The position numbers and the translations under genes were made by a program. This document shows, piece after piece, positions 1,463-29,700 of a DNA stretch of 64,000 nt; within the stretch, counting starts at the first letter, position 1, and each line of letters begins with the position of its first letter. The notes below the pieces were generated by a model that had not been told where the DNA came from, searched no databases, and saw only the letters and a list, made by a program, of their open reading frames with translations. The DNA comes from an uncultured Methanosarcinales archaeon (GTDB lineage Archaea > Nanobdellota > Nanobdellia > Woesearchaeales > GW2011-AR15): the NCBI GenBank assembly GCA_964537195.1, contig CAZHYZ010000002.1:66416-130415 (forward strand), given 5' to 3'.

Positions 1463-2272
1463 TTATAAAGATTTTGCATCTATGCCTTTCAAATCCTTTC
1501 TCGTCTTAAGTTTTATGACTTTAGACGTGCTTAAATATCCGTTCAGAAAGCCTTTTTCTGCTAAGGCTGGAAAAATATCTCTTTCTAGGCTGTGTCCAGC
1601 ATATTCTAATATCTCTGGCTGAGCTATAAATATTGAGGAAAATCCAAGATAAACATCAGATACAGCAGGTTTTTGTATGAATTCCATTATTTTAGAGCCT
1701 TCAATTTTAACAACACCTTTCTTTGTAGGGTCGGGCGTTGTAGTAAGTAATAAGGTGGCAACACCTTTCCTCTTTAAATGTTCGTTCCATAACTCTTCAA
1801 TGTTTAGATTAGAAAACAAAATATCTCCATATACAACAAGAAAACTAGATTTTAACTTTCCCCTCAATAGTTTCAATGAGTCTCCTGTTCCTTGAGAATC
1901 TTTTTCCTCAACATATTCTATATTTACACCATACTTTGATCCGTTTTGTACAATAGAAAAAACTTCATTTACAACGTTCTTTCTTGCAATCAAATATATT
2001 GTTTTAAAACCTTCTTCCTTTAACTTCTTTAACATAACTTCAATTACTGTGTTTCCATTGAATTTTCCAGTTATTCTGTATTCGGTATCAGAGATTTTTA
2101 TGTCTTCTTCAGGACCACCAGACAAGATTACAGCAGCTTTATTTTCACCAAGAGCAGATTTAACTAAGAGTTCTATTGCTTGACTCCTATTTCTTATGTA
2201 TATGTTGTCTATTATGTTATCAATATCTTTTAATGTCTTCTCATTAATAGTAATAGAAATCTTTTTTTTCAT
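1463..2272 (-). CDS. Sugar-phosphate nucleotidyltransferase (NTP_transferase fold) with an N-terminal ribbon-helix-helix (CopG-like) domain
   Basis: The N-terminus MKKKISITINEKTLKDIDNII..RNRSQAIELLVKSAL has the beta-alpha-alpha RHH pattern. The rest (AVILSGG..GTGDSL..VVYGDILF) is a glucose-1-phosphate thymidylyl/uridylyltransferase-like core. Confidence 0.6.
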   Translation of the reverse strand: MKKKISITINEKTLKDIDNIIDNIYIRNRSQAIELLVKSALGENKAAVILSGGPEEDIKISDTEYRITGKFNGNTVIEVMLKKLKEEGFKTIYLIARKNVVNEVFSIVQNGSKYGVNIEYVEEKDSQGTGDSLKLLRGKLKSSFLVVYGDILFSNLNIEELWNEHLKRKGVATLLLTTTPDPTKKGVVKIEGSKIMEFIQKPAVSDVYLGFSSIFIAQPEILEYAGHSLERDIFPALAEKGFLNGYLSTSKVIKLKTRKDLKGIDAKSL

Positions 2273-2373
2273 TCAGAACCGAAAAAACAAACAGAATATA
2301 TAAATATATCGCATAAAGTAAGATAACGGTAAGATATATAAATTATTACGATTTGTAGAGGAAAGTGATTTAA

Positions 2374-3636
2374 ATGAAAATATCAGTAATCGGACTCGGA
2401 TACGTAGGATTAATACAAGCAGCAGGCACAGCAAAACTAGGTCATGATGTGATTGGCATAGATATAGATGAAACAAAGGTTGATAAGATAAATAAAAAAG
2501 AACCCCCCATATATGAAGAAGGCCTAAAAGAATTACTTTCTGAAGTTGTTCCTTCTAAATTAAAAGCAACAACAGACATAAAAAGAATTTTGGATACAGA
2601 TGTAACTTTTATTTGTGTAGGCACTCCTTCAAAAAAACAAGGCAACATGTCTTTACATCAATTGGATCATGTACTTGCTCAAGTTGGCAAGTTAATAAAA
2701 AACAAAAAACACATTTTTGTAGTCAAATCAACGGTTGTTCCAGGAACATGTGAAGAAGTAGTTATTCCTAAACTTGAAGAGAGTTCTGGAAACAAATTTT
2801 CTGAAGGGTTCTCAGTTGTCATGAATCCTGAGTTTTTAAGAGAAGGACAAGCTATAGAAGACTTCTTTAATCCGGATAGAGTTGTATTAGGAAGTTCAGA
2901 TAAAAAAGCAATTAAGGAAGTAAAAAAGATATATTCTAAATTTGATTGTCCTGTTTTAGAAACAAAATTCAAAGAAGCAGAAATGATTAAGTATGCTTCT
3001 AATGCTTTTTTAGCAACAAAGATATCTTTCATAAACGAAATAGGAAACATTTCGAAGAGGTATGGGATCGATACTAACATTGTTGCAAAAGGTATTGGAC
3101 TAGATACTAGAATTAATGAGAGATTCTTACGCTCTGGGATAGGGTTTGGTGGAAGTTGTTTTCCTAAAGATGTAAATGCTATTGTGTACAAAGGCACAGA
3201 ACTAGGTTATTCTCCGAGATTGTTGAGAGCAGTTCTTGATATAAACAGGGAACAACCATTAAAATTAATTGAGTTGTTGGAAAAAAAGGGACCAATAAAA
3301 GGAAAGAAAATAGGATTACTGGGATTAACCTTTAAGGCCGGCACAGATGACATTAGAGAGAGCCCAGCATTAACAACAATTAAAGAGTTATTAATGGAAG
3401 AAGCAGTGTTGTCAATATATGATCCAAAGGCGATGGAAAAAGTAAAGAGAATATTTCCCCACCTTAACTATGCCAAAACAGGGCAGGAAGTTATAGATAA
3501 GAGTGAAATAATTCTTATATTGACCGAGTGGACAGAATTCAAGAAATTAAATTATGGCAAGAAACCCGTAATAGATGGAAAAAACTTGTTTTTCGATAAT
3601 AATATTCCTGAGAACTATGAAGGGATTTGTTGGTAA
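2374..3636 (+). CDS. ugd: UDP-glucose 6-dehydrogenase
   Basis: MKISVIGLGYVGL Rossmann N-terminus, catalytic GGSCFPKD motif, and UDPG_MGDP_dh N, central and C domains over 420 aa. Confidence 0.85.
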   Translation: MKISVIGLGYVGLIQAAGTAKLGHDVIGIDIDETKVDKINKKEPPIYEEGLKELLSEVVPSKLKATTDIKRILDTDVTFICVGTPSKKQGNMSLHQLDHVLAQVGKLIKNKKHIFVVKSTVVPGTCEEVVIPKLEESSGNKFSEGFSVVMNPEFLREGQAIEDFFNPDRVVLGSSDKKAIKEVKKIYSKFDCPVLETKFKEAEMIKYASNAFLATKISFINEIGNISKRYGIDTNIVAKGIGLDTRINERFLRSGIGFGGSCFPKDVNAIVYKGTELGYSPRLLRAVLDINREQPLKLIELLEKKGPIKGKKIGLLGLTFKAGTDDIRESPALTTIKELLMEEAVLSIYDPKAMEKVKRIFPHLNYAKTGQEVIDKSEIILILTEWTEFKKLNYGKKPVIDGKNLFFDNNIPENYEGICW

Positions 3637-3713
3637 TTAGTAATATTATAGTAAAATATTTATATTATTTACTTTTTTCTTAGTAATATTTTAATAAATA
3701 AAGAGGTGTTTTT

Positions 3714-6326
3714 ATGAAGAAAATTTTGTTATTATTTTTGTTTGTCTTTTTAATGTGTGCCTTTGTTACCGCAGATCTGACAGACGGATTATATTCTTAT
3801 TTTCCAATGGAAAATCATTCTGATATTTTGGGATACGCTAAGACAGGAGATATAGGCCAAGTATCTTATACTCCTGGCTTGATTGGGAAAGCTCTGAATA
3901 TAACTACTGATGCCACCAACTCAATGATATATTTTGGAGATAGTGTTAGTGATAGAGACAATACTTATAGAGACGTAATGTTTAATGATAGCACGGTTAA
4001 TGTTTGGGTATATGTTAGGGAATTTGATTCTTTGACTTCAGGAAAAGAAGCTATCTTTGGGGGCAGTCCGAGAGAAAAAGAGAGATTGGGAGGGTGTACT
4101 TATGAAACCAACCCTTGGGAAATTGTTCTTAGAAAAGTTCCAAAATGTAACTATGATAATTGTCCTGATGACACTAACAAAGTAGAAGTCAGCTTTGAGA
4201 TTTTTTATTATTCTGCGCCAAAGGAAATAGATACAAACAAAACCTTATTTTTGAAAAATAAGGAAACCAAGGTCGAAGAAAAAAGTTGGAATATGTTAAC
4301 TATGTTGCATATAAAAAACAAGAGTTATAAAATGTATTTTAATGGAATATTTCAAGAGACTAAAAACATAAAGAATGAGGAAAAAAACTTTGTAATTAAT
4401 GCTTCTTGTCCCTATGCTATAGGGGGAAGACCACTTATTACAACATATGGGTTTCCTTTTTCGGGACAAATAGACGAACTCGGCGTCTGGAACAGGGCAC
4501 TTTCAGAAGGAGAAATTAAGGAACTATATAATAAGGGAAAAGGCAAAACATATCCTTTTGAAAAAGAGCAAGAAGTCGATCCTCTGTTGTTAAAATTTGC
4601 ACCAGTCATCAAGCTTCACCCAGAAGAGTATTATGAATTTAAAGAAATATCTGGTCTAATGGATTATTCTAACTTAATGAACGGAGAAGAATTAATTTCT
4701 GGAGCCCCAACAAAAACAAATAATATTTCTAATTTGTCAAACTCAAGAGATTATTCAATGGACTTTGTTAATATTGATGTAAATGAACCTTATGATTTAC
4801 CAGATCCCAACATTTTTCTAAATTATTCACCCACAATTTACTCGAGAATAGAGGAAGATGAGTATGGGTTTAAACACCTACAATATTTTTTCTTCTTCCC
4901 TTTCCAAAATTACAAACATATGAATCACGAGGGAGACTGGGAGTATGTTGAAGTGATTTTGAATAGTGCTAACAAGATTCATAGTGTTACATATTATTTT
5001 AGTGTTTTTGCGGAAACATATTTTGACAACACACTTCTAGATTTTTTTAATGAAACACATCCAATAGTGTATGTAGCAAAAGGAAGCCATAACACGTACG
5101 GAAGTTTAGAACCCTATAATTTTCAAGATATTCCTTTCTTTCCAGAAGACTTTGCTGAAGAAATGTTGTTTTGGGAAAAGGTTTTTAGGATAGTAAAACA
5201 AACAGATTCTGTTGATGAAGCAGGGAAGACAATATATCCACGTACTCTATCTGAAAACGGATACATTTTGGAGCAGATAGACAAAAACACACCTTGGGCG
5301 AATTATGAAGGAAGATGGGGTCAGGATGCTAAAGCCTTTTTGAGGAAAGGTCCAAGATCTCCACAATATGATGCTCGGTTTGATAACTGGGACCTTAATA
5401 ATTATTTTTCTGTGTTTGGAGACACAATTATCGGAGTAAATTTACATAGTCCACTTAATATTTCTCTTTTAGACAAACAAGGGCAAGTAATAACCAAAGC
5501 TTCTGAACACCTTGTTTATCACACAGGTCCAGACGATCCTGAATTTATTATGTTAAAGGGTATTGAAGAGGTCACGCTTTTTTTAGACTCATACAAACCT
5601 GGAAATTTTTCATTAGACATATTTTATTACAATAACAATACCGTTTCAGGACTCTTGGTGGAATATGTCAATCTTACCACATATGAAAATACCTTTGCAA
5701 GACTAAACATCAGTCTCAATTCAGTATTTGTTCTTCAAATAGATTTAGATGGGGACGAAAACTATGAATCAGAGATTTATCCAAACAAATATGTTGTTTA
5801 TAATGGGTTTTCTCTTCCAGATAGAGATAGGGACAATGTGACAGATTTTGAGGACAATTGCCCAGAAATTAGTAATCCAGAACAAAAAGACTTTAATGAA
5901 GACGACAAAGGAGACGCATGTGACAACCCAAGATATTACAAAGAAAGAGCTCTAGAAAACTTAGAAACCCTTGAAGCAGAGCACAGAAGAGACAAAATAA
6001 AAGTAATGTTGGCAAAAAGAAATCTCAAACAAAGCTTGCAAGACCAATTGTGGAAAGACAATTTTGATATTAACAATAAAAATGTTTTTTTAAGAGAACA
6101 TGTGGCAAGTAGAATGCTTAAAGACAAAGAGTTTTCTAAGTTGTTGGCAAAAGCAGACTCACTTATTGTAGAGAAAAAAATTGCTCAAACAAGGTTAAAT
6201 AGAAAACAAGAGAAAGTAGTTGAAAAGATGTATGAAAGAGCCAACACACACTATAAAGAGGAGAGATATAACAGAGCTATTCTTTCATATATGCATATTT
6301 GGATATTGTTAAATAAGAAAGCTTAA
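3714..6326 (+). CDS. Secreted multidomain protein: signal peptide, LamG-like lectin, Vps62/DUF946-like domain, thrombospondin type-3 Ca-binding repeat, C-terminal coiled coil
   Basis: Signal peptide MKKILLLFLFVFLMCAFVTA. LamG signature GQIDELGVWNRALSEGEIKELYNKG. HEGDWEYVEV motif. TSP3-like DRDRDNVTDFEDNCPEISNPEQKDFNEDDKGDACDN. Confidence 0.5.
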   Translation: MKKILLLFLFVFLMCAFVTADLTDGLYSYFPMENHSDILGYAKTGDIGQVSYTPGLIGKALNITTDATNSMIYFGDSVSDRDNTYRDVMFNDSTVNVWVYVREFDSLTSGKEAIFGGSPREKERLGGCTYETNPWEIVLRKVPKCNYDNCPDDTNKVEVSFEIFYYSAPKEIDTNKTLFLKNKETKVEEKSWNMLTMLHIKNKSYKMYFNGIFQETKNIKNEEKNFVINASCPYAIGGRPLITTYGFPFSGQIDELGVWNRALSEGEIKELYNKGKGKTYPFEKEQEVDPLLLKFAPVIKLHPEEYYEFKEISGLMDYSNLMNGEELISGAPTKTNNISNLSNSRDYSMDFVNIDVNEPYDLPDPNIFLNYSPTIYSRIEEDEYGFKHLQYFFFFPFQNYKHMNHEGDWEYVEVILNSANKIHSVTYYFSVFAETYFDNTLLDFFNETHPIVYVAKGSHNTYGSLEPYNFQDIPFFPEDFAEEMLFWEKVFRIVKQTDSVDEAGKTIYPRTLSENGYILEQIDKNTPWANYEGRWGQDAKAFLRKGPRSPQYDARFDNWDLNNYFSVFGDTIIGVNLHSPLNISLLDKQGQVITKASEHLVYHTGPDDPEFIMLKGIEEVTLFLDSYKPGNFSLDIFYYNNNTVSGLLVEYVNLTTYENTFARLNISLNSVFVLQIDLDGDENYESEIYPNKYVVYNGFSLPDRDRDNVTDFEDNCPEISNPEQKDFNEDDKGDACDNPRYYKERALENLETLEAEHRRDKIKVMLAKRNLKQSLQDQLWKDNFDINNKNVFLREHVASRMLKDKEFSKLLAKADSLIVEKKIAQTRLNRKQEKVVEKMYERANTHYKEERYNRAILSYMHIWILLNKKA

Positions 6327-6352: not shown

Positions 6353-7618
6353 ATGAAAGTTGCAATCATAGGTCTGGGTTATGTTGGTCTGCCACTAGCT
6401 ATACTTTGTTCTAAAAAAGGCCACGAAGTTATAGGTGTTGATGTTAATAAGGAAAAAGTTGAAAAAATTAACAAAGAGACAAGTCCGATAGAGGATAGTT
6501 ATATTAAGCAAAATTTGAAAAAAGCACCAATAAAAGCAACCACAGATTTTTCTCAAATAGAAAAAGCAGAAGTAATCATTGTTTGTGTGCCTACTCCGGT
6601 AGATGAAAAACACATCCCAGATTTAAGTTATGTTGTTTCTGCATCCGAAAGTGTTTCAGAGTACTTAAAAAAAGGTCAAACAATTATTATAGAGTCTACA
6701 GTACATCCAGGAACAACTGAGGAAGTTGTAAAACCAATTCTTGAAAAAACAAGTCTGAAAGCAGGAAAAGATTTCTTTTTAGCTCATTGTCCAGAGAGAA
6801 TTGATCCCGGAAACAAAAAATGGACTATTGAGAATATTCCAAGAGTTGTAGGTGGTATTGGTAAAGAGAGCACAAAGAAAGTAGCAGCGTTCTACAATTC
6901 AATAATCGATGCGGAAATAATTCAGGTTACTAGTCCCAAGGAAGCAGAAGCCACAAAAATAATGGAAAACACATTTAGGGATGTTAATATTGCGTTTGTT
7001 AATGAAATGGCAAAAAGTTTTGATAAAGCAGGTATTGATATAACAGAAGTAATTAAAGGAGCTTCTTCCAAACCATTTGGATTTATGCCACATTATCCAG
7101 GGGCAGGAGTGGGAGGACATTGTATTGCTGTTGACCCATATTATTTAATAGATAATGCAAAAAAATATGAATTTGATCACGAGTTTTTGAAATTAGCGAG
7201 GAAAATAAACAACAGCATGCCTGAATACACAGTTGGTTTATTGGTAGAGGAACTAAATAAGATTGGAAAAAGTGTGAAAGGTGCTAAAGTCGGCATTTTG
7301 GGGTTAGCATATAAAGCAGGGATAGATGATATGAGAGAAAGTCCTGCACTGAAGATAATTAAGATTTTGAAAAAGAAAGGAGCAGACATAGTTATTTATG
7401 ATCCTTTTATTCTAGAAAAGTCAGATGTTCAATCTTTAAAAGAACTATTGGAGAAAGTTGATTATTTGGTTTTGGTTACAGATCATAAGGAGTTTAAAGA
7501 GATGGAGCTTGGGTTGTTAGTACAGAGGAACATTAAAGTTGTTATTGATGGTAGGAATTGTTTGGATAACGAGAAAATAATGAAAAAAGGTATAAAATAT
7601 AGGGCTGTGGGAAGATGA
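6353..7618 (+). CDS. Nucleotide-sugar dehydrogenase (UDP-N-acetyl-D-mannosamine or -glucosamine dehydrogenase-like)
   Basis: MKVAIIGLGYVGLPLA N-terminus and GGHCI catalytic Cys motif. It is a paralogue of the ugd family but clearly distinct from the gene at 2374. Confidence 0.75.
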   Translation: MKVAIIGLGYVGLPLAILCSKKGHEVIGVDVNKEKVEKINKETSPIEDSYIKQNLKKAPIKATTDFSQIEKAEVIIVCVPTPVDEKHIPDLSYVVSASESVSEYLKKGQTIIIESTVHPGTTEEVVKPILEKTSLKAGKDFFLAHCPERIDPGNKKWTIENIPRVVGGIGKESTKKVAAFYNSIIDAEIIQVTSPKEAEATKIMENTFRDVNIAFVNEMAKSFDKAGIDITEVIKGASSKPFGFMPHYPGAGVGGHCIAVDPYYLIDNAKKYEFDHEFLKLARKINNSMPEYTVGLLVEELNKIGKSVKGAKVGILGLAYKAGIDDMRESPALKIIKILKKKGADIVIYDPFILEKSDVQSLKELLEKVDYLVLVTDHKEFKEMELGLLVQRNIKVVIDGRNCLDNEKIMKKGIKYRAVGR

Positions 7619-8193
7619 AGAGAAGACCGCTATTGACCCGTATCAGACAACATTTTTTTTGGGAAGCAAGCCCAGGAGAAGTCCTTTCTAAAATTATTGA
7701 TAAAGCGGAATATAAAATCTATGCAGAGATTGGCGTTTGGAAAGGGGTAACTGCAGAACATATTGCAGAGAACTGTGTTTTTCTCAAAAAGATTTATTTG
7801 GTTGATCCTTATGATAGCAACATAGAATATAAGGAAGGAAGATTATACAAAAAAGGAGAGGATAAAACAGTTAGGAGAGCAAAAGAAGAAATGTTGTCTA
7901 GAACAAGGAGATTCTCAAACATACAGTATGTCTATAAAACAAGCAAAGAAGCAAACAAAGATTTCAAAGATAAGACATTAGATGTGGTCTTTATAGATGC
8001 CATACACGAATATAATTCTGTGAAGGAAGACATTTTTTTATGGAAACCAAAGGTAAAGAGAGGAGGAATTATTTGTGGTCACGACTACAATAACAGATAT
8101 AAAAATCATGTAGTGAGGGCTGTGGATGAAATTTTTAATTTGGATAAAATAATGCTTTTTGACAACGCAATCTGGGCAGTTAGAGTTAATTAG
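7615..8193 (+). CDS. Class I SAM-dependent methyltransferase (Methyltransf_24 / TylF-like O-methyltransferase family)
   Basis: VVFIDAIHEYNSVKEDI..GGIICGHDY pattern typical of the cephalosporin-hydroxylase/macrocin O-MTase fold. Its start overlaps the upstream dehydrogenase stop. Confidence 0.5.
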   Translation: MKRRPLLTRIRQHFFWEASPGEVLSKIIDKAEYKIYAEIGVWKGVTAEHIAENCVFLKKIYLVDPYDSNIEYKEGRLYKKGEDKTVRRAKEEMLSRTRRFSNIQYVYKTSKEANKDFKDKTLDVVFIDAIHEYNSVKEDIFLWKPKVKRGGIICGHDYNNRYKNHVVRAVDEIFNLDKIMLFDNAIWAVRVN

Positions 8194-20726: not shown

Positions 20727-20728
20727 AG

Positions 20729-21664
20729 TTATATTTTATTATATCCCCACAAAGAAATCAAATCTTTTCCAGTTAGTTTAGACAATTTTTTTACTTCTGG
20801 TTTATATTGTTTCATCAACTTTTTCTTGAACTCAACGTCCAAATCTGGACGTTTAGACGACTTTTTATTAAGATTAGCTATAAACGTATAAAGCCCATCA
20901 TATATCTTAAAAGGGACAATTTTTTTAATGAATTCTTTTAGAGGAGAGGGATCATAAATTAACTTTTGCATAATTTTACTTCTTGGTACAGAGAAAACAT
21001 TGTATCTTTTGAAATCAGGGTGAAAATATTTATCGACATCAAGAAAATCTAAGACTTCTTTATAAGTTTTTTCAGGAGACTTCTTCAAATCATCCAACAA
21101 CACAATTTTTACTTGTTTTTTAGGAAAGACTTCCAAATATCTATTTATTTGTTCTGAGAACTTTGCTAAATCTGAATAAAATAAACGAGAAGGGAACATT
21201 ACTACTTTAGGAATTTTATTTTTGTCTTTTTTTCTCTGTTCTTCTATTCTAAGCGCTTTTTGGAGAGACAAAGCATTGTCTATCCTATATAATGTGTTGT
21301 GTTTATGCATAGAATTTAAGAATTCAACAGGATTTCTCAACATAATGATTATTTTTGATTCAGGATTGAATTTCTTTATCTCTTTTGCAGCAACTTTGGA
21401 ATAAAGATAGAATACACTTGATTCACCTAGCTTTTTTTCTTTTTTTGCCTTCGAAAAAAGTCTCAGGTAGTCTTTTTCTTTTCTATATCTGAATCTCTTT
21501 TTTTCACCATAAAACACGTCACTCTTTTTATGTAGATCTTTACAAAAATAATGCGGTTCTTCTGGTTTAGAAACAAATATGTCTGGATGCTGATTAAGCA
21601 ACCTCCTTAAAGAAGTCGTTCCACTCTTTGGGAACCCAACAATAAAAAAATTTGGTTTTCTCAT
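20729..21664 (-). CDS. PAPS-dependent sulfotransferase
   Basis: 5'-PSB motif FIVGFPKSGTTSL at the N-terminus and a 3'-PB-like region (..IIMLRNPVEF..). Length is typical (311 aa). Confidence 0.8.
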   Translation of the reverse strand: MRKPNFFIVGFPKSGTTSLRRLLNQHPDIFVSKPEEPHYFCKDLHKKSDVFYGEKKRFRYRKEKDYLRLFSKAKKEKKLGESSVFYLYSKVAAKEIKKFNPESKIIIMLRNPVEFLNSMHKHNTLYRIDNALSLQKALRIEEQRKKDKNKIPKVVMFPSRLFYSDLAKFSEQINRYLEVFPKKQVKIVLLDDLKKSPEKTYKEVLDFLDVDKYFHPDFKRYNVFSVPRSKIMQKLIYDPSPLKEFIKKIVPFKIYDGLYTFIANLNKKSSKRPDLDVEFKKKLMKQYKPEVKKLSKLTGKDLISLWGYNKI

Positions 21665-21726
21665 TTAACTTGCAAAAAGCAGATAATTTTATATATCTTT
21701 TGAAGGTGCTGTTTATTGGTGATAAC

Positions 21727-22817: not shown

Positions 22818-23864
22818 ATGAAAGTATTGATGTGTGGTTTTTACGACATAAACTATTATTCCAGGGCCAGAATATTGTATAAAGGATTAAAATCACAGAA
22901 AGTTGAAGTAAAAAAATGTCTGCCTAGAAAGAGAAACAAATACAAGATTTTAATTAAAAGACTTCTAAAAAAAGATTTTGACATAATTGTTGCTACCGGA
23001 AAAATCTGTTTTCTTATTTGCTGGTTGTTTAAACCATTCCACAGAAAGAAAATAGTTTTTGATTTTGTAATAACAGATTATGATACTTTGGTCAGGTCAA
23101 GAAAGAAAGTCAAAAAAGACACAATAAGGGCAAAGTTAATTTGGCTAAGTGATAAAATTGCCTTGAAATTATCAGACAAGGTTATGGGAGAATGTAATGA
23201 ATTTAACGAGCAGGTAGCAAAAGAATATGACATTAAAAAAGAAAAGTTTTCAGATGTTGTTCTTGGTGCAGACGAAGACATCTTTTATCCCAGGAAGAAA
23301 AAGAAGTCAAAAAAATTTACAATATATTATCACGGTACCTTTATACCACACCATGGCTTGGAGTATGTTGTGGAAGCAGCCAAACTATTAAAGAAGGAAA
23401 AACAGATAATGTTTAAATTTATAGGAGAAGGACAGACATATAATGAGATGAAAGAACTTTCTGGGAAATACAAATTAAAAAATGTTGAATTTCTTGGATT
23501 TCAAAAAATTACAAACGTTCCAAAGATGTTGGCAGAAGCAGATTTGTGCTTAGGAATATTCAAAAATAGCATAAAAGCGAAGAGACATGTAACTCATAAG
23601 ATCTTTGAAGTTTTGGCAATAAAAAAACCCTTATTAACAGGGAATTCACCTGCAACTACAAGGATATTGAATCATTTAGAGCATTGTTATTTCTGTAAAT
23701 TAGGAGATGCAAAATCTTTGGCTAAAGGCATTCTATATTTAAAAAAAAACCCAAAGAAAAGAAAAAAGATAGCAGAGCAAGGCTATAAAAAACACTTAGA
23801 AGAGTTTACTTATAAGAAGATAGGTCTAAGAATGAAAGAGATTCTTGAAGATATTTTAGATTAG
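22818..23864 (+). CDS. Glycosyltransferase (GT-B, Glycos_transf_1 C-terminal domain)
   Basis: YYHGTFIPHHGLEYVVEAAKLL..FIGEGQ..FLGF.. motif order typical of GT4-like enzymes. Confidence 0.55.
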   Translation: MKVLMCGFYDINYYSRARILYKGLKSQKVEVKKCLPRKRNKYKILIKRLLKKDFDIIVATGKICFLICWLFKPFHRKKIVFDFVITDYDTLVRSRKKVKKDTIRAKLIWLSDKIALKLSDKVMGECNEFNEQVAKEYDIKKEKFSDVVLGADEDIFYPRKKKKSKKFTIYYHGTFIPHHGLEYVVEAAKLLKKEKQIMFKFIGEGQTYNEMKELSGKYKLKNVEFLGFQKITNVPKMLAEADLCLGIFKNSIKAKRHVTHKIFEVLAIKKPLLTGNSPATTRILNHLEHCYFCKLGDAKSLAKGILYLKKNPKKRKKIAEQGYKKHLEEFTYKKIGLRMKEILEDILD

Positions 23865-24029: not shown

Positions 24030-24212
24030 ATGGAAGACGGAGAAAAAATTAATACATTCCCTGCAAAAATTAGAAAATGGGGAGATAGTTTCGCAATTAC
24101 AATTGATAAAAATATTATTGATACTTTAGATCTGGGTCTGGGTTTTGTTCTTGAGGTTAGAATTTTAAATGTAGATAGAACGGTTTCAAAAGATAAGGGG
24201 AATAAAAAATGA
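24030..24212 (+). CDS. Small AbrB/MazE (SpoVT-AbrB swapped-hairpin)-like protein
   Basis: KIRKWGDSFAITIDKNIIDTLDLGLGFVLEV matches the vrkwGnS.aitIPk..l..l.l..Gd.vev pattern. The stop overlaps the next GT start (ATGA). Confidence 0.35.
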   Translation: MEDGEKINTFPAKIRKWGDSFAITIDKNIIDTLDLGLGFVLEVRILNVDRTVSKDKGNKK

Positions 24213-25462
24213 AAGTATTAATGATATCAGAATATTACCCTCCACACGGGAAAGGAGGAGGAGAAATAAGTGCAAAGATGCTTGCAGAACTATTGTCTAA
24301 AGAGAAAAATATTGAAATGCACGTTCTTACATCTTATTTTGGAGAAAAGAAAAAGAAGGAGAAAAAAGGGAAACTTACAATTCATAGGTATCTGAAGACA
24401 GGAGAATCTCCAACATCTTTAATAGGGAATATTAAGAGAGAAGCCCAATTCAAAAGATCTTTGTTAAAGGAATTGAAAGTTCTAAATGAAAAAGAAAAAT
24501 TTGACATCATTCAGTGCATGAATTCAACAAGCATTCATGCTATTAAACTTAAAGATTTTATAGATGCAAAATTTATTTTACAAGCCCACGGTCCAGTTCT
24601 TTTTTGTCCTAAAGCGACATTGATTTATAAGCATGAAAAATCTTGTGATGTTGAATGCAATCTTAAAAATTATACCAAATGTTATTTTAATTCTAAAGCA
24701 ATAGGTAAAATGGATTTTAAACCCCACTTGAAATATAATCCTGTTGTTTTTTATGAATTAAGACGCCGCTATAATGAATATAAAAAATTATTCAAACAAT
24801 TTGATTATTATGTTGCTATAAGTGGATATATGGAAAAAAGAGCAATTTTTATGGGGGCAAATAAAAAAGATGTGAAAATTATTTATCATCCGATAGATGT
24901 TGACAAATATCTGAAATTAAAATCTCCTAAGAATAAACTCAAGAAGATTCTTTATTTGGGAGCATATAGTAGAACAAAGGGACCACAAATATTATTAAAT
25001 GCTCTAAGAACTATTAAGGAACCATACGAAGCTAACTTTTATGGTGAGGGCGTATTAAAAGAGTTATTAAGAAAAAGGGTCAAAGAATTTAATCTCAATG
25101 TTACTATTCATGATAAAATTAGTAATGGAGAAGTTCCCAATGTACTTGAAAAACATGATGTTGTTGTGGTTCCTTCTTTTGTAGGGGAAGCTCTTGGAAA
25201 AGTAGGAATAGAAGCGAGAGCCTCAGGAAAACTTGTTGTTGCATCAGATGTTGGAGGTATTCCGGATGTTGTGACAAACAAAAAGAATGGTTATTTATTT
25301 AAACCAGGAGATGCAAATGAATTAGGTACAATTCTCAAACAAATACTAAAAGGTAAACTTAGTCTGAGTTTAAAAGAAATTAGAAAAAACATAGACATAT
25401 TTTCTGCTAAGAAAATAGTCCCAAAGATAAAGAAAGCATATAATTCTTTAATTAAATCCTAA
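24209..25462 (+). CDS. Glycosyltransferase family 4 with a Cys-rich insertion
   Basis: N-terminal MKVLMISEYYPPHGKGGGE and C-terminal PSFVGEALGKVGIEARASGKLVVASDVGGIPDVV..NGYLF. The insertion reads FCPKATLIYKHEKSCDVECNLKNYTKC. Confidence 0.75.
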   Translation: MKVLMISEYYPPHGKGGGEISAKMLAELLSKEKNIEMHVLTSYFGEKKKKEKKGKLTIHRYLKTGESPTSLIGNIKREAQFKRSLLKELKVLNEKEKFDIIQCMNSTSIHAIKLKDFIDAKFILQAHGPVLFCPKATLIYKHEKSCDVECNLKNYTKCYFNSKAIGKMDFKPHLKYNPVVFYELRRRYNEYKKLFKQFDYYVAISGYMEKRAIFMGANKKDVKIIYHPIDVDKYLKLKSPKNKLKKILYLGAYSRTKGPQILLNALRTIKEPYEANFYGEGVLKELLRKRVKEFNLNVTIHDKISNGEVPNVLEKHDVVVVPSFVGEALGKVGIEARASGKLVVASDVGGIPDVVTNKKNGYLFKPGDANELGTILKQILKGKLSLSLKEIRKNIDIFSAKKIVPKIKKAYNSLIKS

Positions 25463-25620
25463 AACAAAGCATAAACAAAGGGACTTACTGCACTGCTTTG
25501 TCCAAATATTATCAATATTCCAACCAGTATGAGCATTAATATAATTGGAGTAAGCCACCACACCTTTCTTACTTTTAGAAAATCCCAGAGTTCAGCAAGT
25601 AATGATTTGTTTTTTGCCAT
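25459..25620 (-). CDS. Small membrane protein (53 aa), DUF5989/SxtK-like, downstream of the carbamoyltransferase
   Basis: Minus-strand ORF MAKNKSLLAELWDFLKVRKVWWLTPIILMLILVGILIIFGQSSAVSPFVYALF. It was too short for the ORF track. Similar small proteins accompany NodU-type carbamoyltransferases elsewhere (from memory, not searched). Confidence 0.45.
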   Translation of the reverse strand: MAKNKSLLAELWDFLKVRKVWWLTPIILMLILVGILIIFGQSSAVSPFVYALF

Positions 25621-25645
25621 GTTGTGTTTTAAAGTAATTGTTTTT

Positions 25646-27415
25646 TTAATTCTTTGCGTTTTTTTGGCTATTCCATGTGTCTTTTGAATTATCTTTTCTT
25701 TTGATAAGGAATTTGTCTAATATCATATAATCAATTCCAGTCCCCATCATGCATGTATATGCATCATAAGGTGTACAGACAATAGGTTCTCCCCTTATAT
25801 TAAACGAAGTATTAATTAACATGGGAACTCCAGATATTTTTCCGAATTCTTTAATTAAATCATAATACAACCTATTTTGTTTTTTTCTTATTGTTTGTAA
25901 TCTACCAGAGCCATCCACATGAGTTACAGACGGAAGTTTTTTATGCCACTTCTTTTTAATAGGATATACCATCAACATGAAATCAGTTGGTTGAGGTAAT
26001 GGAGAATCACATTCAAAGAATTTTTTTGTATCTTCCCTACAAACAACAGGAGCAAATGGCCTAAATGACTCCCTATGTTTAACTTTTTTATTTAGGATTT
26101 TTTTCATCTTTGGATTAAGTGGGTTAGCTAAAATGCTTCTGTTACCTAGGGCTCTGGGACCAAATTCCATCCTTCCTTGAAACCAGCCAACAACATTATC
26201 TTCATAAATCAACCCAGCAGTTTTTTTAACCAATTCTTTTTTGTTCTTGAACACAGAATAATTAATCTCATTTTCATCTAAGAATTGGTTAATCTCCCTT
26301 GTCGAAAACCCAGGTCCAAACGAGGCAGAGTCCATAACATAATCTCTCTTCTTTCCAAGTACAACATTGTAAATATGTTGTGCTACTCCCAAACTAGTGC
26401 CACCGTCTCCGGCAGCAGGCTGTATCCACACCTTTTTAAAAGGACTATTTTTCAATACTTTTCCATTAAAAACACTGTTTAAAGCAACACCACCAGATAA
26501 AACAAGATTGTCACCTTTTGTTTTTTTGTGTACATACTTAAGAATTTTGAATAGTGTCTCTTCAGTTATCATTTGTAAAGCAGCTGCAATATTCTTGTGT
26601 TTCTGTGTTAGTTTGCTCTCCGGTTTTCTTATGGGTCCACCAAGCATTTTACATAATTTCTCTGAAGGCATTCTGTCTGCATAATGATATTTGAAATAAG
26701 TCATATCTAATCTAAAACTGCCATCTTCTTTGACATCTATTGCTTTCTTCAGTTTCTTGTAATATGGATTCTTATTTTTGTCTTTAAGTCCATACGAAGC
26801 AAGCCCCATGACCTTGAATTCGGAATTATTTACCTTAAATCCGAGATAGGCAGTAAGGGTAGAATATAATAAACCAAGAGAATGAGGAAATCTAATTTCG
26901 TTTATCAATTCAATTTTATTATTTTTTCCATAACCAACTGTTGTGGTAGTCCATTCTCCCACACCATCTACAGTAACAATTGCACTTTCTCTAAATGGAC
27001 TTACTAAAAAGGAGCTAGCAGCATGTGCCATGTGATGAGGTATAAATAAGACATCTCCATTATACTTTAACTTTTTTATAATGGTCTTTATTATTCTAAG
27101 TTTTTCATTTATCCAGGAAGGAGTAGAACTCAAAAAGGCTTTGTAGCTTTTTGGGAAGCTCTGAAGGTGTTGATATAAGAGACGTTCAAATTTTAATAAG
27201 GGTTTTTCATAAAATCCAACATAATCAACTTCTTTAATAGTTATGTTTTGGCTTTTCAGACAATATTTTATCGCATTTATTGGAAATCCCTCATCATGTT
27301 TTTTTCTAGTAAAACGTTCTTCTTCGGCCGCGGCAACAATTTTTCCATTTTTTAATAATGTTGCAGAAGAATCATGATAATAGCAACTTACTCCAAGGAC
27401 ATACATCTTATTCAA
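25646..27415 (-). CDS. Carbamoyltransferase (NodU/CmcH family)
   Basis: MYVLGVSCYYHDSSATLL..EEERFTRKKHD N-terminal YrdC/Kae1-like domain plus a C-terminal carbamoyltransferase domain over 589 aa. Confidence 0.85.
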   Translation of the reverse strand: MNKMYVLGVSCYYHDSSATLLKNGKIVAAAEEERFTRKKHDEGFPINAIKYCLKSQNITIKEVDYVGFYEKPLLKFERLLYQHLQSFPKSYKAFLSSTPSWINEKLRIIKTIIKKLKYNGDVLFIPHHMAHAASSFLVSPFRESAIVTVDGVGEWTTTTVGYGKNNKIELINEIRFPHSLGLLYSTLTAYLGFKVNNSEFKVMGLASYGLKDKNKNPYYKKLKKAIDVKEDGSFRLDMTYFKYHYADRMPSEKLCKMLGGPIRKPESKLTQKHKNIAAALQMITEETLFKILKYVHKKTKGDNLVLSGGVALNSVFNGKVLKNSPFKKVWIQPAAGDGGTSLGVAQHIYNVVLGKKRDYVMDSASFGPGFSTREINQFLDENEINYSVFKNKKELVKKTAGLIYEDNVVGWFQGRMEFGPRALGNRSILANPLNPKMKKILNKKVKHRESFRPFAPVVCREDTKKFFECDSPLPQPTDFMLMVYPIKKKWHKKLPSVTHVDGSGRLQTIRKKQNRLYYDLIKEFGKISGVPMLINTSFNIRGEPIVCTPYDAYTCMMGTGIDYMILDKFLIKRKDNSKDTWNSQKNAKN

Positions 27416-28331
27416 CTCTTAAAAGTTTAAGCAATAGAGCTTTTTGCATGTGTAATCTGTTTTCTGCCTGATCAAACACCACGCTTTGAGAACCATCTAT
27501 TACTTCTTCTGTTTGTTCCATTCCTCTTTGTGCTGGAAGGCAATTCATGAAAATAGCATCTTTTTTTGCATTCTTCATTAAATCAGAGGTTACTTGAAAA
27601 GGTTTTAATACTTTTATTCTGTCTTTTTTTTCCTCTTCAGGAACATGATAAGACATCCAGGAATCAGTATATACTATGTCTGCATCTCTGGTTGCCTCTT
27701 CTGGATTGTCTGTAATTATTATTTTGCTATTCTCTGCAAGACTTTTTGCCTTTTCTAATACTTCTTTTAATGGTTCATATTCTTCTCCCTTTGGACAACC
27801 AACAGATATGTCAATACCCATATTAGCACACCCAAACAAAAGAGAATGAGTTACATTGTTTTTTCCATCTCCCAAATAACCCAGTTTTAAGCCTTCTAAT
27901 GTTCCTTTTTTCTCTTTTATGGTCAGGAAATCAGATAATATTTGGCAAGGATGTGAAAAATCTGTTAGACCATTTATAACGGGAACAGAGGAACTCTTTG
28001 CCAACTTTTTTAATTGTGAATGAGAGTATAGTCTTGCCATGATTACATCAACATATCTAGAAGCTGTTTTGGCAGTATCAGAAACAGATTCTTTTTTCCC
28101 CATAGGTGAATCTTTTAGATCATAAAATATGGCATGTCCACCTAATTGAGTCATACCAACCTCAAAACTAACACGCGTTCTTAAAGAAGGTTTTTCAAAC
28201 ATCATCAATAAAGATTTTTGTTTTAATTTCTCTTTGTACTCCCCAGAGTTCTTTTTTATTCTCTCTGCTAAATCTATTAATTCTAGGATTTCTTTTTTAC
28301 TTAAGTCTGTTAGATCAATTAAATCTTTCAT
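27408..28331 (-). CDS. Ornithine-carbamoyltransferase-like transcarbamylase with a divergent substrate-binding loop
   Basis: SLRTRVSFE (STRTR), HPCQ (HPxQ) and NCLPAQRG (HCLP) motifs are present. The ornithine-binding DxxxSMG loop is replaced by DSWMSYH. Confidence 0.7.
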   Translation of the reverse strand: MKDLIDLTDLSKKEILELIDLAERIKKNSGEYKEKLKQKSLLMMFEKPSLRTRVSFEVGMTQLGGHAIFYDLKDSPMGKKESVSDTAKTASRYVDVIMARLYSHSQLKKLAKSSSVPVINGLTDFSHPCQILSDFLTIKEKKGTLEGLKLGYLGDGKNNVTHSLLFGCANMGIDISVGCPKGEEYEPLKEVLEKAKSLAENSKIIITDNPEEATRDADIVYTDSWMSYHVPEEEKKDRIKVLKPFQVTSDLMKNAKKDAIFMNCLPAQRGMEQTEEVIDGSQSVVFDQAENRLHMQKALLLKLLRVE

Positions 28332-28332
28332 T

Positions 28333-28569
28333 TTAAAACATCCTGTAATAATTTTCTTTATCTTCTTTTTTCAAATTTAAAGAAGACCAATAACTTTCTC
28401 TTTTCATCTTAGTTTCTAAAAACTCTTTTTTAGCTATTTTTGCTATGATTGAGGTTATCCCAACACCAACAAGATAAACAATAGAAAGTAAAACAGAATT
28501 AATTATTATTGAGATATTCTCCCCAAAATCTTTAAACCCTCTTTTGAAACCAATAAACAAGTCTTTCAT
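28333..28569 (-). CDS. Small membrane protein (78 aa)
   Basis: One or two TM segments (IIINSVLLSIVYLVGVGITSIIAKI). It sits between the transcarbamylase and the next small ORF with an ATGA overlap. Confidence 0.35.
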   Translation of the reverse strand: MKDLFIGFKRGFKDFGENISIIINSVLLSIVYLVGVGITSIIAKIAKKEFLETKMKRESYWSSLNLKKEDKENYYRMF

Positions 28570-28763
28570 CTTAGATACCTCTTTAGGATAAATCCAAAAA
28601 GGGTGATGGATAAAGTAATGGTTATGATTTTTAGTAAGTTTCCTTTACCCACAAAATTCAAAACAAAAAATAACACCATAGAAAAAAACGAAAAACCAAC
28701 TAAGAAACCCAGAAAGTAACCGAACTTATACAATTTTTCATTTCTTTGAAAAGCCTTAATCAC
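28566..28763 (-). CDS. Small membrane protein (65 aa)
   Basis: Two predicted TM helices (FGYFLGFLVGFSFFSMVLFFVLNFV; IITITLSITLFGFIL). It overlaps its neighbours by a few nt. Confidence 0.35.
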   Translation of the reverse strand: MIKAFQRNEKLYKFGYFLGFLVGFSFFSMVLFFVLNFVGKGNLLKIITITLSITLFGFILKRYLR

Positions 28764-29700
28764 GGTCTTCTAAAATTTTTTCAAAATAATTAATTGTTTT
28801 TTTCAAGCCCTCTTCAAATCCAACTTTTGGTTCCCAACTCAATAGTTTTCTTGCCTGTGAGATGTCTGGCTGTCTTTTACTAGGATCATCTTTGGGTAAT
28901 GGAAGATACTTAAATTCAGATTTTGCTCCAGTAATCTTTTTAATTAACTCAGCAGTTTCCATAATTGAATATTCTTTTGGATTTCCTAAATTTTTAGGAC
29001 CAATTTCTTTTGATTTCATCATTTTTATTAATCCTGATACCATGTCATCTATATAACAAAAAGACCTTGTTTGGGAACCATCTCCATATATAGTGAGGGG
29101 GTCGTTTTGCAAAGTCTGAGTAATAAAATTAGGAATAACTCTGCCGTCATCTATTCTCATTCTGGGACCATATGTGTTAAATATTCTTACTATTTTAACA
29201 TCAACATTATATTCTCTATAATACGCCATCAAAAGTGCTTCACCAAATCTCTTGCTTTCATCATAACAACTTCTTATACCAACAGGATTAACATTTCCCC
29301 AATAAGATTCTTTTTGAGGATGTTCTCTTGGTTCACCATATGCTTCACTTGTGCTTGTGAAAAGAATGACGGCATTCTTTGCTAACGCTAATTTTGCCAT
29401 TCTGTCTGTCCCAACAGAATTTGCTAAAGCAGTCTCAACAGGATATTTTTGATAATCTTCCGGACTAGCTCTAGATGCCAGGTGAAATATCCAGTCAATC
29501 TTACCTTCAATTAATTGTAATGGTTCTATGATGTTGTGTTTTATAAATCTAAATTTTTTATTATCGGTAAGGTGTCTCACGTTTTCAAAGGTTCCACTAC
29601 CGAGATTATCTACACAAATTACTTCGTGCCCTTCTTTTAGAAGTTGTTCACAGAGATGGCTTCCTATGAATCCTGCTCCCCCAGTTACGAGTACTCTCAT
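28756..29700 (-). CDS. uxs: UDP-glucuronate decarboxylase (UDP-xylose synthase)
   Basis: MRVLVTGGAGFIGSHL and SCYDESKR (YxxxK), with high overall collinearity to UXS/ArnA-decarboxylase SDRs (..FNTYGPRM..). Confidence 0.75.
   Translation of the reverse strand: MRVLVTGGAGFIGSHLCEQLLKEGHEVICVDNLGSGTFENVRHLTDNKKFRFIKHNIIEPLQLIEGKIDWIFHLASRASPEDYQKYPVETALANSVGTDRMAKLALAKNAVILFTSTSEAYGEPREHPQKESYWGNVNPVGIRSCYDESKRFGEALLMAYYREYNVDVKIVRIFNTYGPRMRIDDGRVIPNFITQTLQNDPLTIYGDGSQTRSFCYIDDMVSGLIKMMKSKEIGPKNLGNPKEYSIMETAELIKKITGAKSEFKYLPLPKDDPSKRQPDISQARKLLSWEPKVGFEEGLKKTINYFEKILEDRD

Follow-up and report, generated by a model that had tools for sequence, protein, structure and literature searches.

The 64-kb window analysed here, the whole stretch taken from contig CAZHYZ010000002.1, carries a dense run of glycan-related genes between positions 1463 and 29700, as judged from the listing of open reading frames (ORFs) and from family scans. 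Genes were called by comparing the window ORFs with Pfam, NCBIfam and the sequences of the Protein Data Bank (PDB). Among the RNA genes of the window are those of a 5S rRNA and of an RNase P RNA of the archaeal type, and the latter bears out the archaeal origin proposed in a first-pass annotation. The other window genes include HerA/NurA, topoisomerase IA (TopA), Hef, ScpB, eRF1 and RFC. The nearest named relatives of HerA (71–74% identity) are all Candidatus Woesearchaeota; by its sequence the host is a Woesearchaeota (DPANN) archaeon, and the view that the locus serves a cell-surface glycan in an archaeon with a small genome is supported. As a glycan locus it belongs to a well-known kind. 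The novelty lies in its cassette for 3'-phosphoadenosine 5'-phosphosulfate (PAPS), in which a domain derived from NMNAT appears to occupy the place of ATP sulfurylase; this departure from known systems is widespread and unannotated.

All genes from 2374 to 14247 lie on the plus strand in an unbroken run, with overlapping ORFs between 6353 and 13043, and the sulfation genes are placed in this operon between the genes of the flippase and of the pyruvyl transferase and a glycosyltransferase (GT). Beyond 14247 the strand alternates, and the final six genes (25459–29700) form a minus-strand operon, so that the term "largely co-oriented" used in the first-pass annotation fits the first part of the locus and not the rest. 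Sulfation, carbamoylation, pyruvylation and methylation are all present as functions predicted by homology. Family and PDB searches confirmed the UDP-glucose dehydrogenase (UGDH), the second NDP-sugar dehydrogenase, the UDP-xylose synthase (UXS), the Wzx flippase and the pyruvyl transferase, and likewise CysQ, two genes of the APS kinase type (APS, adenosine 5'-phosphosulfate), a sulfotransferase, a carbamoyltransferase of the NodU/CmcH type and a transcarbamylase with the fold of ornithine and aspartate transcarbamylases (OTC/ATC). Some of the first counts have to be lowered. Six GTs are detectable, five of GT4 and one Glyco_trans_1_2/DUF3880 protein, instead of at least seven; the short-chain dehydrogenases/reductases (SDRs) number three with UXS counted in, instead of three besides UXS; and of two methyltransferases one is intact, the reading frame of the other being interrupted by a TAA and shifted.

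The PAPS cassette consists of three consecutive genes, which encode CysQ, a 310-residue fusion protein and a canonical APS kinase, CysC (Table 1). In the fusion, an NMNAT-like nucleotidyltransferase (NT) domain precedes an APS-kinase-like half, in which the P-loop is intact, LDSKILR stands in place of LDGDNVR and SISSDLMF in place of GLNxDLGF. The NT domain contains the motifs GRWTPFHNGH, VRDT, DIESVNYGRGVGY and SATQIR, and the corresponding motifs conserved across its family are GRxxPxHxGH, VRD(T/I), S(V/I)N(Y/W)GRGVGY and ISATxIR. Canonical ATP sulfurylase, be it Sat (PF01747) or CysD/CysN, was not found by family scans of the window. The PAPS supply that had been claimed for the locus is thus present as CysC and CysQ and lacks, within the 64 kb, the canonical enzyme of the first step. 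Motifs of Sat, CysD and CysN were searched for as well and were found neither in the window nor in the 87 loci retrieved.

At E ≤ 1e-30 the NT family comprises 134 cluster representatives at 50% identity. The domain is fused to an APS kinase or APS-kinase-like (APSK) domain in 68 of the 150 best 50%-identity representatives, and both domain orders occur, NT-APSK in 80 and APSK-NT in 30 of the best 120 database matches. A kinase is fused or lies less than 400 bp away at 46 of the 79 genome loci of the family. In the APSK-NT form, in which this kinase is the sole one present, the catalytic motifs LDGDN..GLN are kept. Most of the DPANN NT-APSK proteins, that of the window included, are without the kinase catalytic motifs, and a canonical CysC follows the fusion in every DPANN locus examined. 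In Bacteroidota (L006, L007) NT is a stand-alone gene in arrays of the form cysC-NT-(x)-cysQ-wzx-ST-ST (ST, sulfotransferase).

The complete CysQ-fusion-CysC cassette is found in four other DPANN contigs, and relatives of the fusion are annotated as Woesearchaeota, Nanoarchaeota, Nanobdellota or Pacearchaeota. In L001 the cassette adjoins a sulfotransferase and a homologue of the 870-residue secreted protein of the window; in L086 cassette and sulfotransferase abut STT3/AglB. It had been stated that sulfotransferase and PAPS supply genes seldom occur side by side in small archaeal genomes of this kind. This view is not supported: the cassette recurs in Woesearchaeota, Nanoarchaeota and Pacearchaeota, its fusion has the architecture of the 80 NT-APSK clusters among the best 120, and it adjoins sulfotransferases in other DPANN contigs as well. 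Nor are sulfotransferase genes new in DPANN, since uncharacterised ones in Pacearchaeota and Woesearchaeota had been pointed out in an earlier review.

The AlphaFold2 (AF2) model of the NT domain has a pLDDT of 91. Like the archaeal NMNATs (MJ0541, PDB 1f9a; M. thermoautotrophicum, PDB 1ej2), to which it is related by profile (E 2e-15) and by fold (template modelling score 0.72), the domain has motifs of the GRFxPFHxGH and ISxTxxR kind, of which HxGH and ISxTxxR are generic to adenylyltransferases. Unlike them, it is about 30 residues shorter, shares 22% identity, has two extra invariant arginines across its clade, and carries invariant VRD(T/I) and S(V/I)N(Y/W)GRGVGY in place of GS(A/S)Q and of the substrate-side region of NMNAT. 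Its scores stay below the NMNAT cut-offs (PRK01153, 47 vs 127; TIGR01527, 36.9 vs 181). True NMNATs of Nanoarchaeia (L070), Nitrososphaera and Thermoplasmatales, recovered by the same scan, have the canonical GS(A/S)Q form. The genomic partners of the NT domain are genes of sulfation and not of NAD metabolism.

From the gene fusion, the neighbourhood and the divergence of the motifs we infer, as the simplest reading, that the NT domain is a non-canonical ATP sulfurylase, converting ATP and sulfate to APS. The more general proposal, that this NMNAT-derived domain of about 135 residues represents a third, unrecognised type of ATP sulfurylase beside Sat and CysDN, stands in our judgement at an even chance. 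In this reading, NT, APS kinase and CysQ would together constitute a compact, horizontally mobile PAPS cassette for glycan sulfation. The range of the NT domain takes in DPANN, where it is fused to a degenerate kinase-like domain, as well as Bacteroidota and other bacteria, where it stands alone or at the C-terminus of an active kinase, and possibly SAR11.

Several observations weigh against a sulfurylase. Among solved structures the NT domain is nearest to archaeal NMNAT and PPAT, not to ATP sulfurylase. With the Pfam ATP sulfurylase family PF01747 the fusion reaches 19.2 bits, below the cut-off of 24.3. A canonical Sat could lie beyond the 64 kb analysed, and sulfate adenylyltransferase genes were stated for all the hydrothermal DPANN metagenome-assembled genomes (MAGs) of one study (PMC8091004). 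Such calls could stem from the very fusion described here, since the bifunctional Sat/CysC model is its best NCBIfam match, though below cut-off. Some members of the NT family are without an adjacent kinase, and some have phage-like N-terminal domains.

The competing explanation is that the NT domain is an NMNAT of NAD salvage or some other adenylyltransferase, and that APS comes from a Sat or CysDN encoded elsewhere. It would fit the closest relationships in sequence and fold, the generic HxGH and ISxTxxR motifs, the coverage of only 64 kb of the genome, the genes reported in DPANN MAGs and the 33 of 79 genome loci at which an adjacent kinase is missing. We consider it unlikely, if worth keeping in mind, in view of the APS kinase fusions in both orders, the stand-alone genes beside cysC, cysQ and sulfotransferases in unrelated phyla, and the conserved VRD and NYGRGVGY that stand where NMNATs have GS(A/S)Q and the NMN-side region, along with two further invariant arginines. 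Bona fide NMNATs keep the canonical form and, being distant (24–31% identity), account for many of the loci without a kinase; the count of Sat/CysDN motifs was zero in 87 loci.

Proteins of the NT family are currently annotated only as "adenylyl-sulfate kinase" or as a generic cytidylyltransferase. No description of the cassette's NT domain was found in NCBIfam, and no report of a non-canonical ATP sulfurylase or of a link between NMNAT and APS kinase was found in the open-access literature, which cannot prove novelty. If the NT domain is a sulfurylase, genomes scored as being without ATP sulfurylase could still make PAPS and their sulfur-metabolism annotation would change; the domain would also provide a very small enzyme for PAPS regeneration in vitro.

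The joining of an adenylyltransferase domain to an APS kinase or kinase-like domain is itself familiar from the bifunctional Sat-CysC PAPS synthases (PRK05537, human PAPSS), in which the PF01747 domain has about 210 residues and not the approximately 135, NMNAT-derived, of the fusion. PAPSS1 in the PDB matches only over a C-terminal stretch of 40 residues (E 0.011). Fungal ATP sulfurylase possesses a C-terminal APS-kinase-like regulatory domain. The kinase-like half of the window fusion, having lost catalytic residues while a separate true kinase exists, resembles this fungal regulatory domain. The closest bacterial analogues of the locus are sulfated capsular polysaccharide (CPS) clusters that have cysDN, cysC and cysQ as well as sulfotransferases. 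One is that of Cobetia marina KMM 1449 (PMC11766843), which like the window combines a PAPS module (APS kinase, CysQ) with sulfotransferases and GTs. The Cobetia cluster has canonical CysD and CysN/C, a sulfate permease and export by an ABC transporter, whereas the window has the fusion of NMNAT-like and APS-kinase-like domains and a Wzx flippase, and is without CysDN, Sat or permease.

A number of further observations concern the cassette and the NT family. Within the cassette, positions 11231–11388 (APS-kinase-like) and 11818–11975 (CysC) are 77% identical over 158 nt, far above the remainder of the two genes, which suggests gene conversion between these neighbours. In a woesearchaeotal locus (L084:11562-20868) the cassette adjoins DUF234 ATPases and a series of toxin-antitoxin and nucleotidyltransferase genes (NTP_transf_2/Polbeta, ParE, PIN), with no GT within 10 kb; this context suggests that the cassette moves independently. 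The high-scoring kinase-less NT representatives P0371, P0406, P0439, P0449 and P0477 have an N-terminal Cys-rich domain (…GKLT…YW.C.C.CG…), which we take to recall phage-type DNA-binding domains, and the NT family may have uses outside sulfation. In SAR11 (Pelagibacteraceae L020-L063, e.g. L021:9561-10342) a P-loop kinase of about 136 residues, 30–37% identical to CysC, is immediately followed by a 124-residue member of the NT family; this pair in L021 adjoins two ORFs whose N-terminal sequences seemed to us EgtB- and EgtD-like.

The sulfotransferase of the locus contains the 5'-phosphosulfate-binding motif PKSGTTSL (5'-PSB) and the 3'-phosphate-binding motif RNP (3'-PB), and every sequence of the family alignment has G10, G15, T16 and R110. 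No transmembrane segment was found in its sequence (20729–21664). A profile built from 31 sequences found first, among PDB entries, the uncharacterised bacterial sulfotransferase structure 3rnl (1e-76), followed by the heparan-sulfate enzymes NDST and 3-OST (1e-15 to 1e-18), with cytosolic SULTs at 1e-6 or weaker. Judged by its sequence, the enzyme is a sulfotransferase of the PAPS type and the heparan-sulfate class, nearest among characterised structures to carbohydrate sulfotransferases. The first-pass annotation had allowed for a small-molecule acceptor; the profile fits the heparan-sulfate enzymes far better than the small-molecule SULTs, the gene lies in a glycan locus, and a carbohydrate acceptor remains the prediction. 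Relatives of the enzyme are patchy in distribution (Methanocaldococcus sp., 53%; bacteria of the candidate phyla radiation, CPR; Woesearchaeota, 41%). A paralogue, P0104, 40% identical, is encoded on the same 145,121-bp source contig outside the window.

The minus-strand operon at the right-hand end is the carbamoylation module. Its carbamoyltransferase has both a Carbam_trans_N (Kae1/ASKHA-like) and a Carbam_trans_C (YrdC-like) domain; it scores 150 against the NodU equivalog, the cut-off being 1000, and so is not a NodU orthologue. The module resembles SxtI-SxtJ-SxtK in combining a two-domain carbamoyltransferase with two small membrane proteins, the DUF5989 protein of 53 residues being comparable to the product of sxtK (165 bp). 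It differs from the Sxt module in belonging to an archaeal glycan locus and in the insertion of an OTC gene. Enzymes with the TobZ/NodU/CmcH-type mechanism depend on carbamoyl phosphate and ATP, according to a review.

The sxt cluster joins SxtI/J/K carbamoylation with a sulfotransferase and an APS kinase, and one may ask if the tailoring enzymes of the window make a sulfated, carbamoylated small-molecule natural product of the saxitoxin kind and not a glycan. We regard this as very improbable. Against it stand the six GTs, the flippase, UGDH, UXS and the nucleotide-sugar epimerases of the locus and a sulfotransferase closest to the heparan-sulfate class, and family scans of the locus found no polyketide synthase, nonribosomal peptide synthetase, amidinotransferase or other scaffold genes.

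The OTC gene overlaps the carbamoyltransferase gene by 8 bp. A relative, GCA_018303605.1 (L081/L082; its locus is called L081 below), has a collinear operon in which this gene alone is absent. The OTC-family enzyme has SLRTR, DSWMSYH and NCLP where classic OTCs have STRTR, DxxxSMG and HCLP. These variant motifs are conserved in about 49 metagenomic relatives of 56–71% identity, a count biased by scan patterns that included two of the variant motifs, while the clade itself is real; relatives of 53% identity or less are canonical. Decay as the cause of the altered motifs was rejected, as the variants are kept across the approximately 49 relatives, and a new substrate is made unlikely by a locus (L092) with the order ArgG-OTC-ArgH. 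Ornithine/citrulline is favoured as the substrate because a clade member lies between ArgG and ArgH. From these sequence comparisons the enzyme is probably a genuine ornithine/citrulline transcarbamylase that has been taken into carbamoyltransferase operons on more than one occasion.

Catabolic transcarbamylases yield carbamoyl phosphate and require a downstream sink, according to a review. The OTC of the window might, by analogy, supply carbamoyl phosphate through phosphorolysis of citrulline, with the O-carbamoyltransferase as the sink, a role for and against which we see roughly equal grounds. The parallel is the catabolic OTC of the arginine deiminase pathway, which also runs toward carbamoyl phosphate and is pulled by a co-transcribed consumer; there the consumer is carbamate kinase, and the window is without arcA or arcC. 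The pairing suggests a route by which host-derived citrulline could sustain O-carbamoylation in a genome that is without carbamoyl-phosphate synthetase.

Against this role speak the ArgG-OTC-ArgH order in L092, the neighbours of the clade member in L114, which are a gene of the amino-acid-kinase family (a carbamate-kinase-like context) and a second transcarbamylase, and the presence of a carbamoyltransferase nearby in only 2 of the approximately 49 clade loci. These same facts, and the passing of the OTC equivalog cut-off, favour the alternative that an arginine-metabolism gene has landed in the operon with no part in carbamoylation, to which we give a little less than an even chance. It is countered by the exact position of the OTC gene between the SxtJ-like gene and the carbamoyltransferase, with the 8-bp overlap, in an operon otherwise collinear. 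The adjacency is seen again, independently, in L088, in the order of the window, and in L091, in the reverse order and with a carbamoyltransferase 35% identical to that of the window. In addition, family scans of the window found no other arginine genes and no other source of carbamoyl phosphate.

Table 1. Genes of the glycan locus, with positions in the window, strand and principal sequence evidence
Feature	Position	Strand	Evidence
Sugar-1-phosphate nucleotidyltransferase-like	1463..2272	-	Pfam NTP_transferase 59.9 bits, residues 71-229 only
UDP-glucose 6-dehydrogenase (AglM/Ugd-like; makes UDP-glucuronate, UDP-GlcA)	2374..3636	+	three UDPG_MGDP_dh domains; NDP-sugDHase 457 bits, over cut-off
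870-aa secreted protein	3714..6326	+	signal peptide, ConA/LamG lectin-like domain, TSP3-like Asp-rich repeat
Second NDP-sugar 6-dehydrogenase	6353..7618	+	NDP-sugDHase 475 bits
Class I S-adenosylmethionine (SAM) methyltransferase (Methyltransf_24), sole intact one in locus	7615..8193	+	Pfam 65.8 bits
Wzx/AglR-type lipid-linked oligosaccharide flippase	8223..9752	+	Polysacc_synt 81.8, Polysacc_synt_3 68.6 bits; MurJ, MatE; multiple transmembrane-like segments
CysQ, 3'(2'),5'-bisphosphate nucleotidase, removes adenosine 3',5'-bisphosphate (PAP)	9736..10542	+	TIGR01331 271.5 bits, cut-off 228.8
310-aa fusion: NMNAT-like HxGH nucleotidyltransferase (NT) 1-135, APS-kinase-like ~137-305	10520..11452	+	motifs, profile, AF2
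Canonical APS kinase CysC	11449..12024	+	TIGR00455 246 bits, cut-off 138.7; LDGDNVR..GLNSDLGF retained
Polysaccharide pyruvyl transferase, CsaB-like	12021..13043	+	PS_pyruv_trans 84.8 bits; CsaB model 98 bits, under cut-off
GT4 (a), paralogue of GT4 (b)	13075..14247	+	Glycos_transf_1 93.7 bits
Disrupted class I methyltransferase	14249..15198	-	Methyltransf_23/11 fragments; in-frame TAA and frame change
GT4 (b)	15301..16479	+	Glycos_transf_1 112.9 bits
GT4 (c)	16518..17588	+	Glycos_transf_1 116.1 bits
GT-B glycosyltransferase-like (Glyco_trans_1_2 + DUF3880)	17585..18547	+	121.1 and 37.5 bits
SDR nucleotide-sugar epimerase, nearest UDP-Glc/GlcA 4-epimerase group	18539..19657	-	Epimerase match in two stretches; PDB 6dnt, 4zrm, MoeE5
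335-aa all-beta protein	19719..20726	+	without Pfam or NCBIfam match
Soluble PAPS-dependent sulfotransferase	20729..21664	-	Sulfotransfer_3 59.4, Sulfotransfer_1 54.2 bits, over cut-off
SDR, CDP-tyvelose/paratose 2-epimerase-like	21652..22785	+	PDB 9rl0, 1orr: 147, 136 bits
GT4 (d)	22818..23864	+	Glycos_transf_1 80.6 bits; L081 orthologue 47% identical
GT4 (e)	24209..25462	+	Glycos_transf_1 94.1 bits; L081 orthologue 51% identical
DUF5989, 53-aa membrane protein, SxtK-like size/position	25459..25620	-	Pfam 77.5 bits; L081 86% identical
O-carbamoyltransferase, NodU/CmcH/TobZ family	25646..27415	-	Carbam_trans_N 259, Carbam_trans_C 240 bits; L081 71% identical
OTC-family enzyme	27408..28331	-	TIGR00658 385 bits vs 281; P. 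furiosus OTC 302 bits (best PDB match)
Two small membrane proteins, 78 and 65 aa, SxtJ-like position between UXS and carbamoylation genes	28333..28763	-	L081 counterparts 53%, 33% identical
UDP-glucuronate decarboxylase (UDP-xylose synthase, UXS)	28756..29700	-	human UXS1: 366 bits, E 2e-108, full length

The remaining genes (Table 1) give the locus the traits of a polysaccharide locus, namely nucleotide-sugar synthesis (UGDH, the second dehydrogenase, UXS and two further SDRs), six GTs and a Wzx flippase. By homology, the locus encodes a supply of UDP-GlcA and UDP-xylose (UDP-Glc to UDP-GlcA to UDP-Xyl). UGDH scores 482 bits against the AglM model, for which the cut-off is 670; the AglF model gave 32 bits against a cut-off of 400, and the AglR-type flippase family is present. 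The second dehydrogenase is nearest to UDP-ManNAc and UDP-GlcNAc dehydrogenases (UDP-ManNAc dehydrogenase models, 359 and 279 bits, both under cut-offs) and by homology supplies a sugar of the HexNAc-uronate type. Four kinds of tailoring enzyme are likewise encoded by homology: the PAPS sulfotransferase, the pyruvyl transferase, the SAM methyltransferase and the O-carbamoyltransferase of the TobZ/NodU type with its SxtJ/K-like partners.

The 870-residue secreted protein matches Laminin_G_3 and the Sialidase N-terminal domain in Pfam and has 16 N-x-S/T sequons, or 1.8 per 100 residues compared with about 0.4 typical of the window. Its full-length homologue, 30% identical, is the one that adjoins the sulfation cassette in L001. 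The protein is a candidate glycosylated surface protein or adhesin. Big secreted proteins lie within both glycan loci, the 870-residue LamG protein in the window and a 990-residue Big-domain protein in L081 (L081:6995-9967); both are possible glycosylation targets or host-attachment proteins.

An acidic oligosaccharide would be assembled on a polyprenyl or dolichyl phosphate carrier at the cytoplasmic face of the membrane. All tailoring enzymes are soluble, and in the cytoplasm they would add sulfate from PAPS, a pyruvate ketal from phosphoenolpyruvate, methyl from SAM and carbamoyl from carbamoyl phosphate. For sulfation, the NT domain of the fusion would adenylylate sulfate to APS in place of Sat/CysDN, the degenerate kinase-like domain serving as a nucleotide-binding scaffold or regulator; the adjacent CysC would convert APS to PAPS, and CysQ would clear the inhibitory product PAP. 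For carbamoylation, the OTC-type enzyme would make carbamoyl phosphate from citrulline, and the ATP-driven carbamoyltransferase would pull this reaction forward. The decorated oligosaccharide would then be flipped by the Wzx/AglR-type flippase and most likely transferred to surface proteins by an AglB encoded elsewhere, or alternatively polymerised; one acceptor may be the sequon-rich, lectin-like 870-residue protein. Taken as one reading, a native, mosaic surface-glycan biosynthesis locus with this pathway, including the sulfate activation and the carbamoyl supply, seems to us reasonably probable.

The evidence base consists of sequences and models, with the glycan itself a prediction, and some expected components are absent from the window, all of which counts against that reading. 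Family scans of the window found no initiating phosphoglycosyltransferase (Glycos_transf_4 PF00953, Bac_transf, GT2) and no AglB/STT3, and no window ORF belongs to a Pfam family of Wzy polymerases, chain-length regulators or exporters. Protein N-glycosylation is favoured by the cassette beside STT3 in L086 and by the sequon-rich secreted protein, which is part of the locus and in L001, too, accompanies the cassette.

A secreted or capsular heteropolysaccharide, that is, an exopolysaccharide (EPS) of the Wzx/Wzy type, is a less probable product than a protein N-glycan, and we hold it to be unlikely. Bacterial EPS/CPS loci typically contain a Wzx-type flippase, a CsaB-like pyruvyl transferase and many GT4 enzymes, as this locus does, PAPS genes occur with sulfotransferases in bacterial sulfated CPS clusters such as that of Cobetia, and AglB was not found in the window. 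Yet a Wzy-like polymerase, a chain-length regulator and an exporter were not found there either, the flippase being the sole multi-transmembrane protein of the locus, and in L086 the same cassette and sulfotransferase abut STT3/AglB. The archaeal AglR flippases, moreover, are members of the Wzx family.

The closest archaeal system is the agl cluster of Halobacterium salinarum (PMC11980604). Both loci are archaeal and have as their product, known or predicted, a sulfated glycan rich in uronic acids that is built on a lipid carrier and destined for surface glycoproteins, and in the aglB-anchored Hbt. salinarum cluster, as in the window, sulfation genes sit among GT genes. The sulfotransferases are of different classes: Agl30 and Agl31, the only characterised archaeal glycan sulfotransferases, have an alkaline-phosphatase/sulfatase-like fold, and that of the window belongs to the classical PAPS-dependent Sulfotransfer_1/3 proteins. 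Unlike the Hbt. salinarum cluster, the window also has its own PAPS cassette and pyruvyl, carbamoyl and methyl functions, and is without AglB. The predicted sulfation chemistry, PAPS with a sulfotransferase of the heparan-sulfate type, therefore differs from the sole archaeal case that has been worked out experimentally. For DPANN archaea, which are found attached to hosts and of whose surface chemistry next to nothing has been described, the locus predicts a strongly anionic, multiply decorated glycan in this member of the group.

The history of the locus can be approached through the surroundings of HerA in relatives. The genome collection that was scanned did not include the source genome, its best match being 72% identical. 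Upstream of HerA, GCA_018303605.1 has the order SDR(372 aa)-GT-GT-GT-DUF5989-carbamoyltransferase-small transmembrane protein-UXS, with identities to the window of 76% for UXS, 71% for the carbamoyltransferase and 86% for DUF5989, compared with 72% for HerA and 58% for TopA. A JGI contig has a UXS-like SDR beside HerA and then other genes (GT9, heptose pathway, deacetylase, methyltransferase), and in GCA_016928835.1 (L083) glycan genes are absent upstream of HerA. A UXS-like SDR adjoins HerA in three of four relatives. Because the identities of UXS, carbamoyltransferase and DUF5989 match that of HerA and exceed that of TopA, the right-hand 5–7 kb (UXS, SxtJ/K-like genes, carbamoyltransferase, GTs) is by sequence comparison vertically inherited. 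Upstream of HerA there is thus a glycan locus of variable content, like O-antigen or capsule loci, and the locus as a whole is native in composition and mosaic in history.

The description of the locus as an accessory island thus holds in part. The site varies between relatives, and the right-hand module is vertical, with no compositional or repeat sign of recent insertion. L081 keeps the right-end module at housekeeping-level identity, and other relatives carry different glycan genes at the site or none. In composition the island does not stand out: GC is 0.315 within it and 0.332 in the rest of the window, and GC at third codon positions (GC3) is about that of the flanking housekeeping genes. 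Mobility of the whole 28 kb as one island was rejected in view of the mosaic of modules (synteny, L081 identities), and an integrative element was rejected as no flanking direct repeats, integrase or tRNA were detected at the locus edges. A recently acquired foreign genomic island is accordingly improbable. It would be consistent with the varied content upstream of HerA (a related cluster, a different cluster or none), with the 5S rRNA gene and LAGLIDADG ORF at the left edge, and with the scattered nearest named relatives of the sulfotransferase; it is at odds with the native GC and GC3, the lack of the edge features just named, and the 71–86% identity of the UXS, carbamoyltransferase and DUF5989 module to a relative whose HerA is 72% identical. 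A scan with bacterial-type promoter and terminator models was at chance level, such models being uninformative for an archaeon.

Some individual genes deserve mention. The protein encoded at 1463–2272 is missing the N-terminal GxGTRL nucleotide-binding motif and has a 45-residue N-terminus resembling ribbon-helix-helix (RHH)/CopG proteins (weak RHH_1 match, E=0.043); instead of catalysing a reaction, the protein may sense sugar nucleotides as a regulator. The disrupted methyltransferase, to judge from its reading frames either a pseudogene or an assembly error, is flanked by the paralogous genes GT4 (a) and GT4 (b), the former being 70% identical in nucleotides over 300 nt to positions 15794–16093 of the latter. 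The SDR at 18539–19657 has an insertion of about 40 residues with four Cys (CKKC...CPVC), similar to a zinc ribbon, and L081 has the same 372-residue form. For the 335-residue protein neither a family (Pfam, NCBIfam) nor a reliable PDB match was found, and its single-sequence AF2 model was poor (pLDDT 38.6); a weak repeat match to a designed propeller makes it possibly a beta-propeller.

At the left edge, the 5S rRNA match (1294–1441, minus strand) extends over 148 nt compared with 120 nt in the model, which implies an insertion, and a stand-alone ORF with a LAGLIDADG domain (459–1292) directly abuts it. Far from the glycan locus, six successive ORFs between 47547 and 54334 (398, 651, 320, 286, 310 and 265 residues) have no Pfam match at E ≤ 1e-5, and some of them have N-terminal hydrophobic segments.

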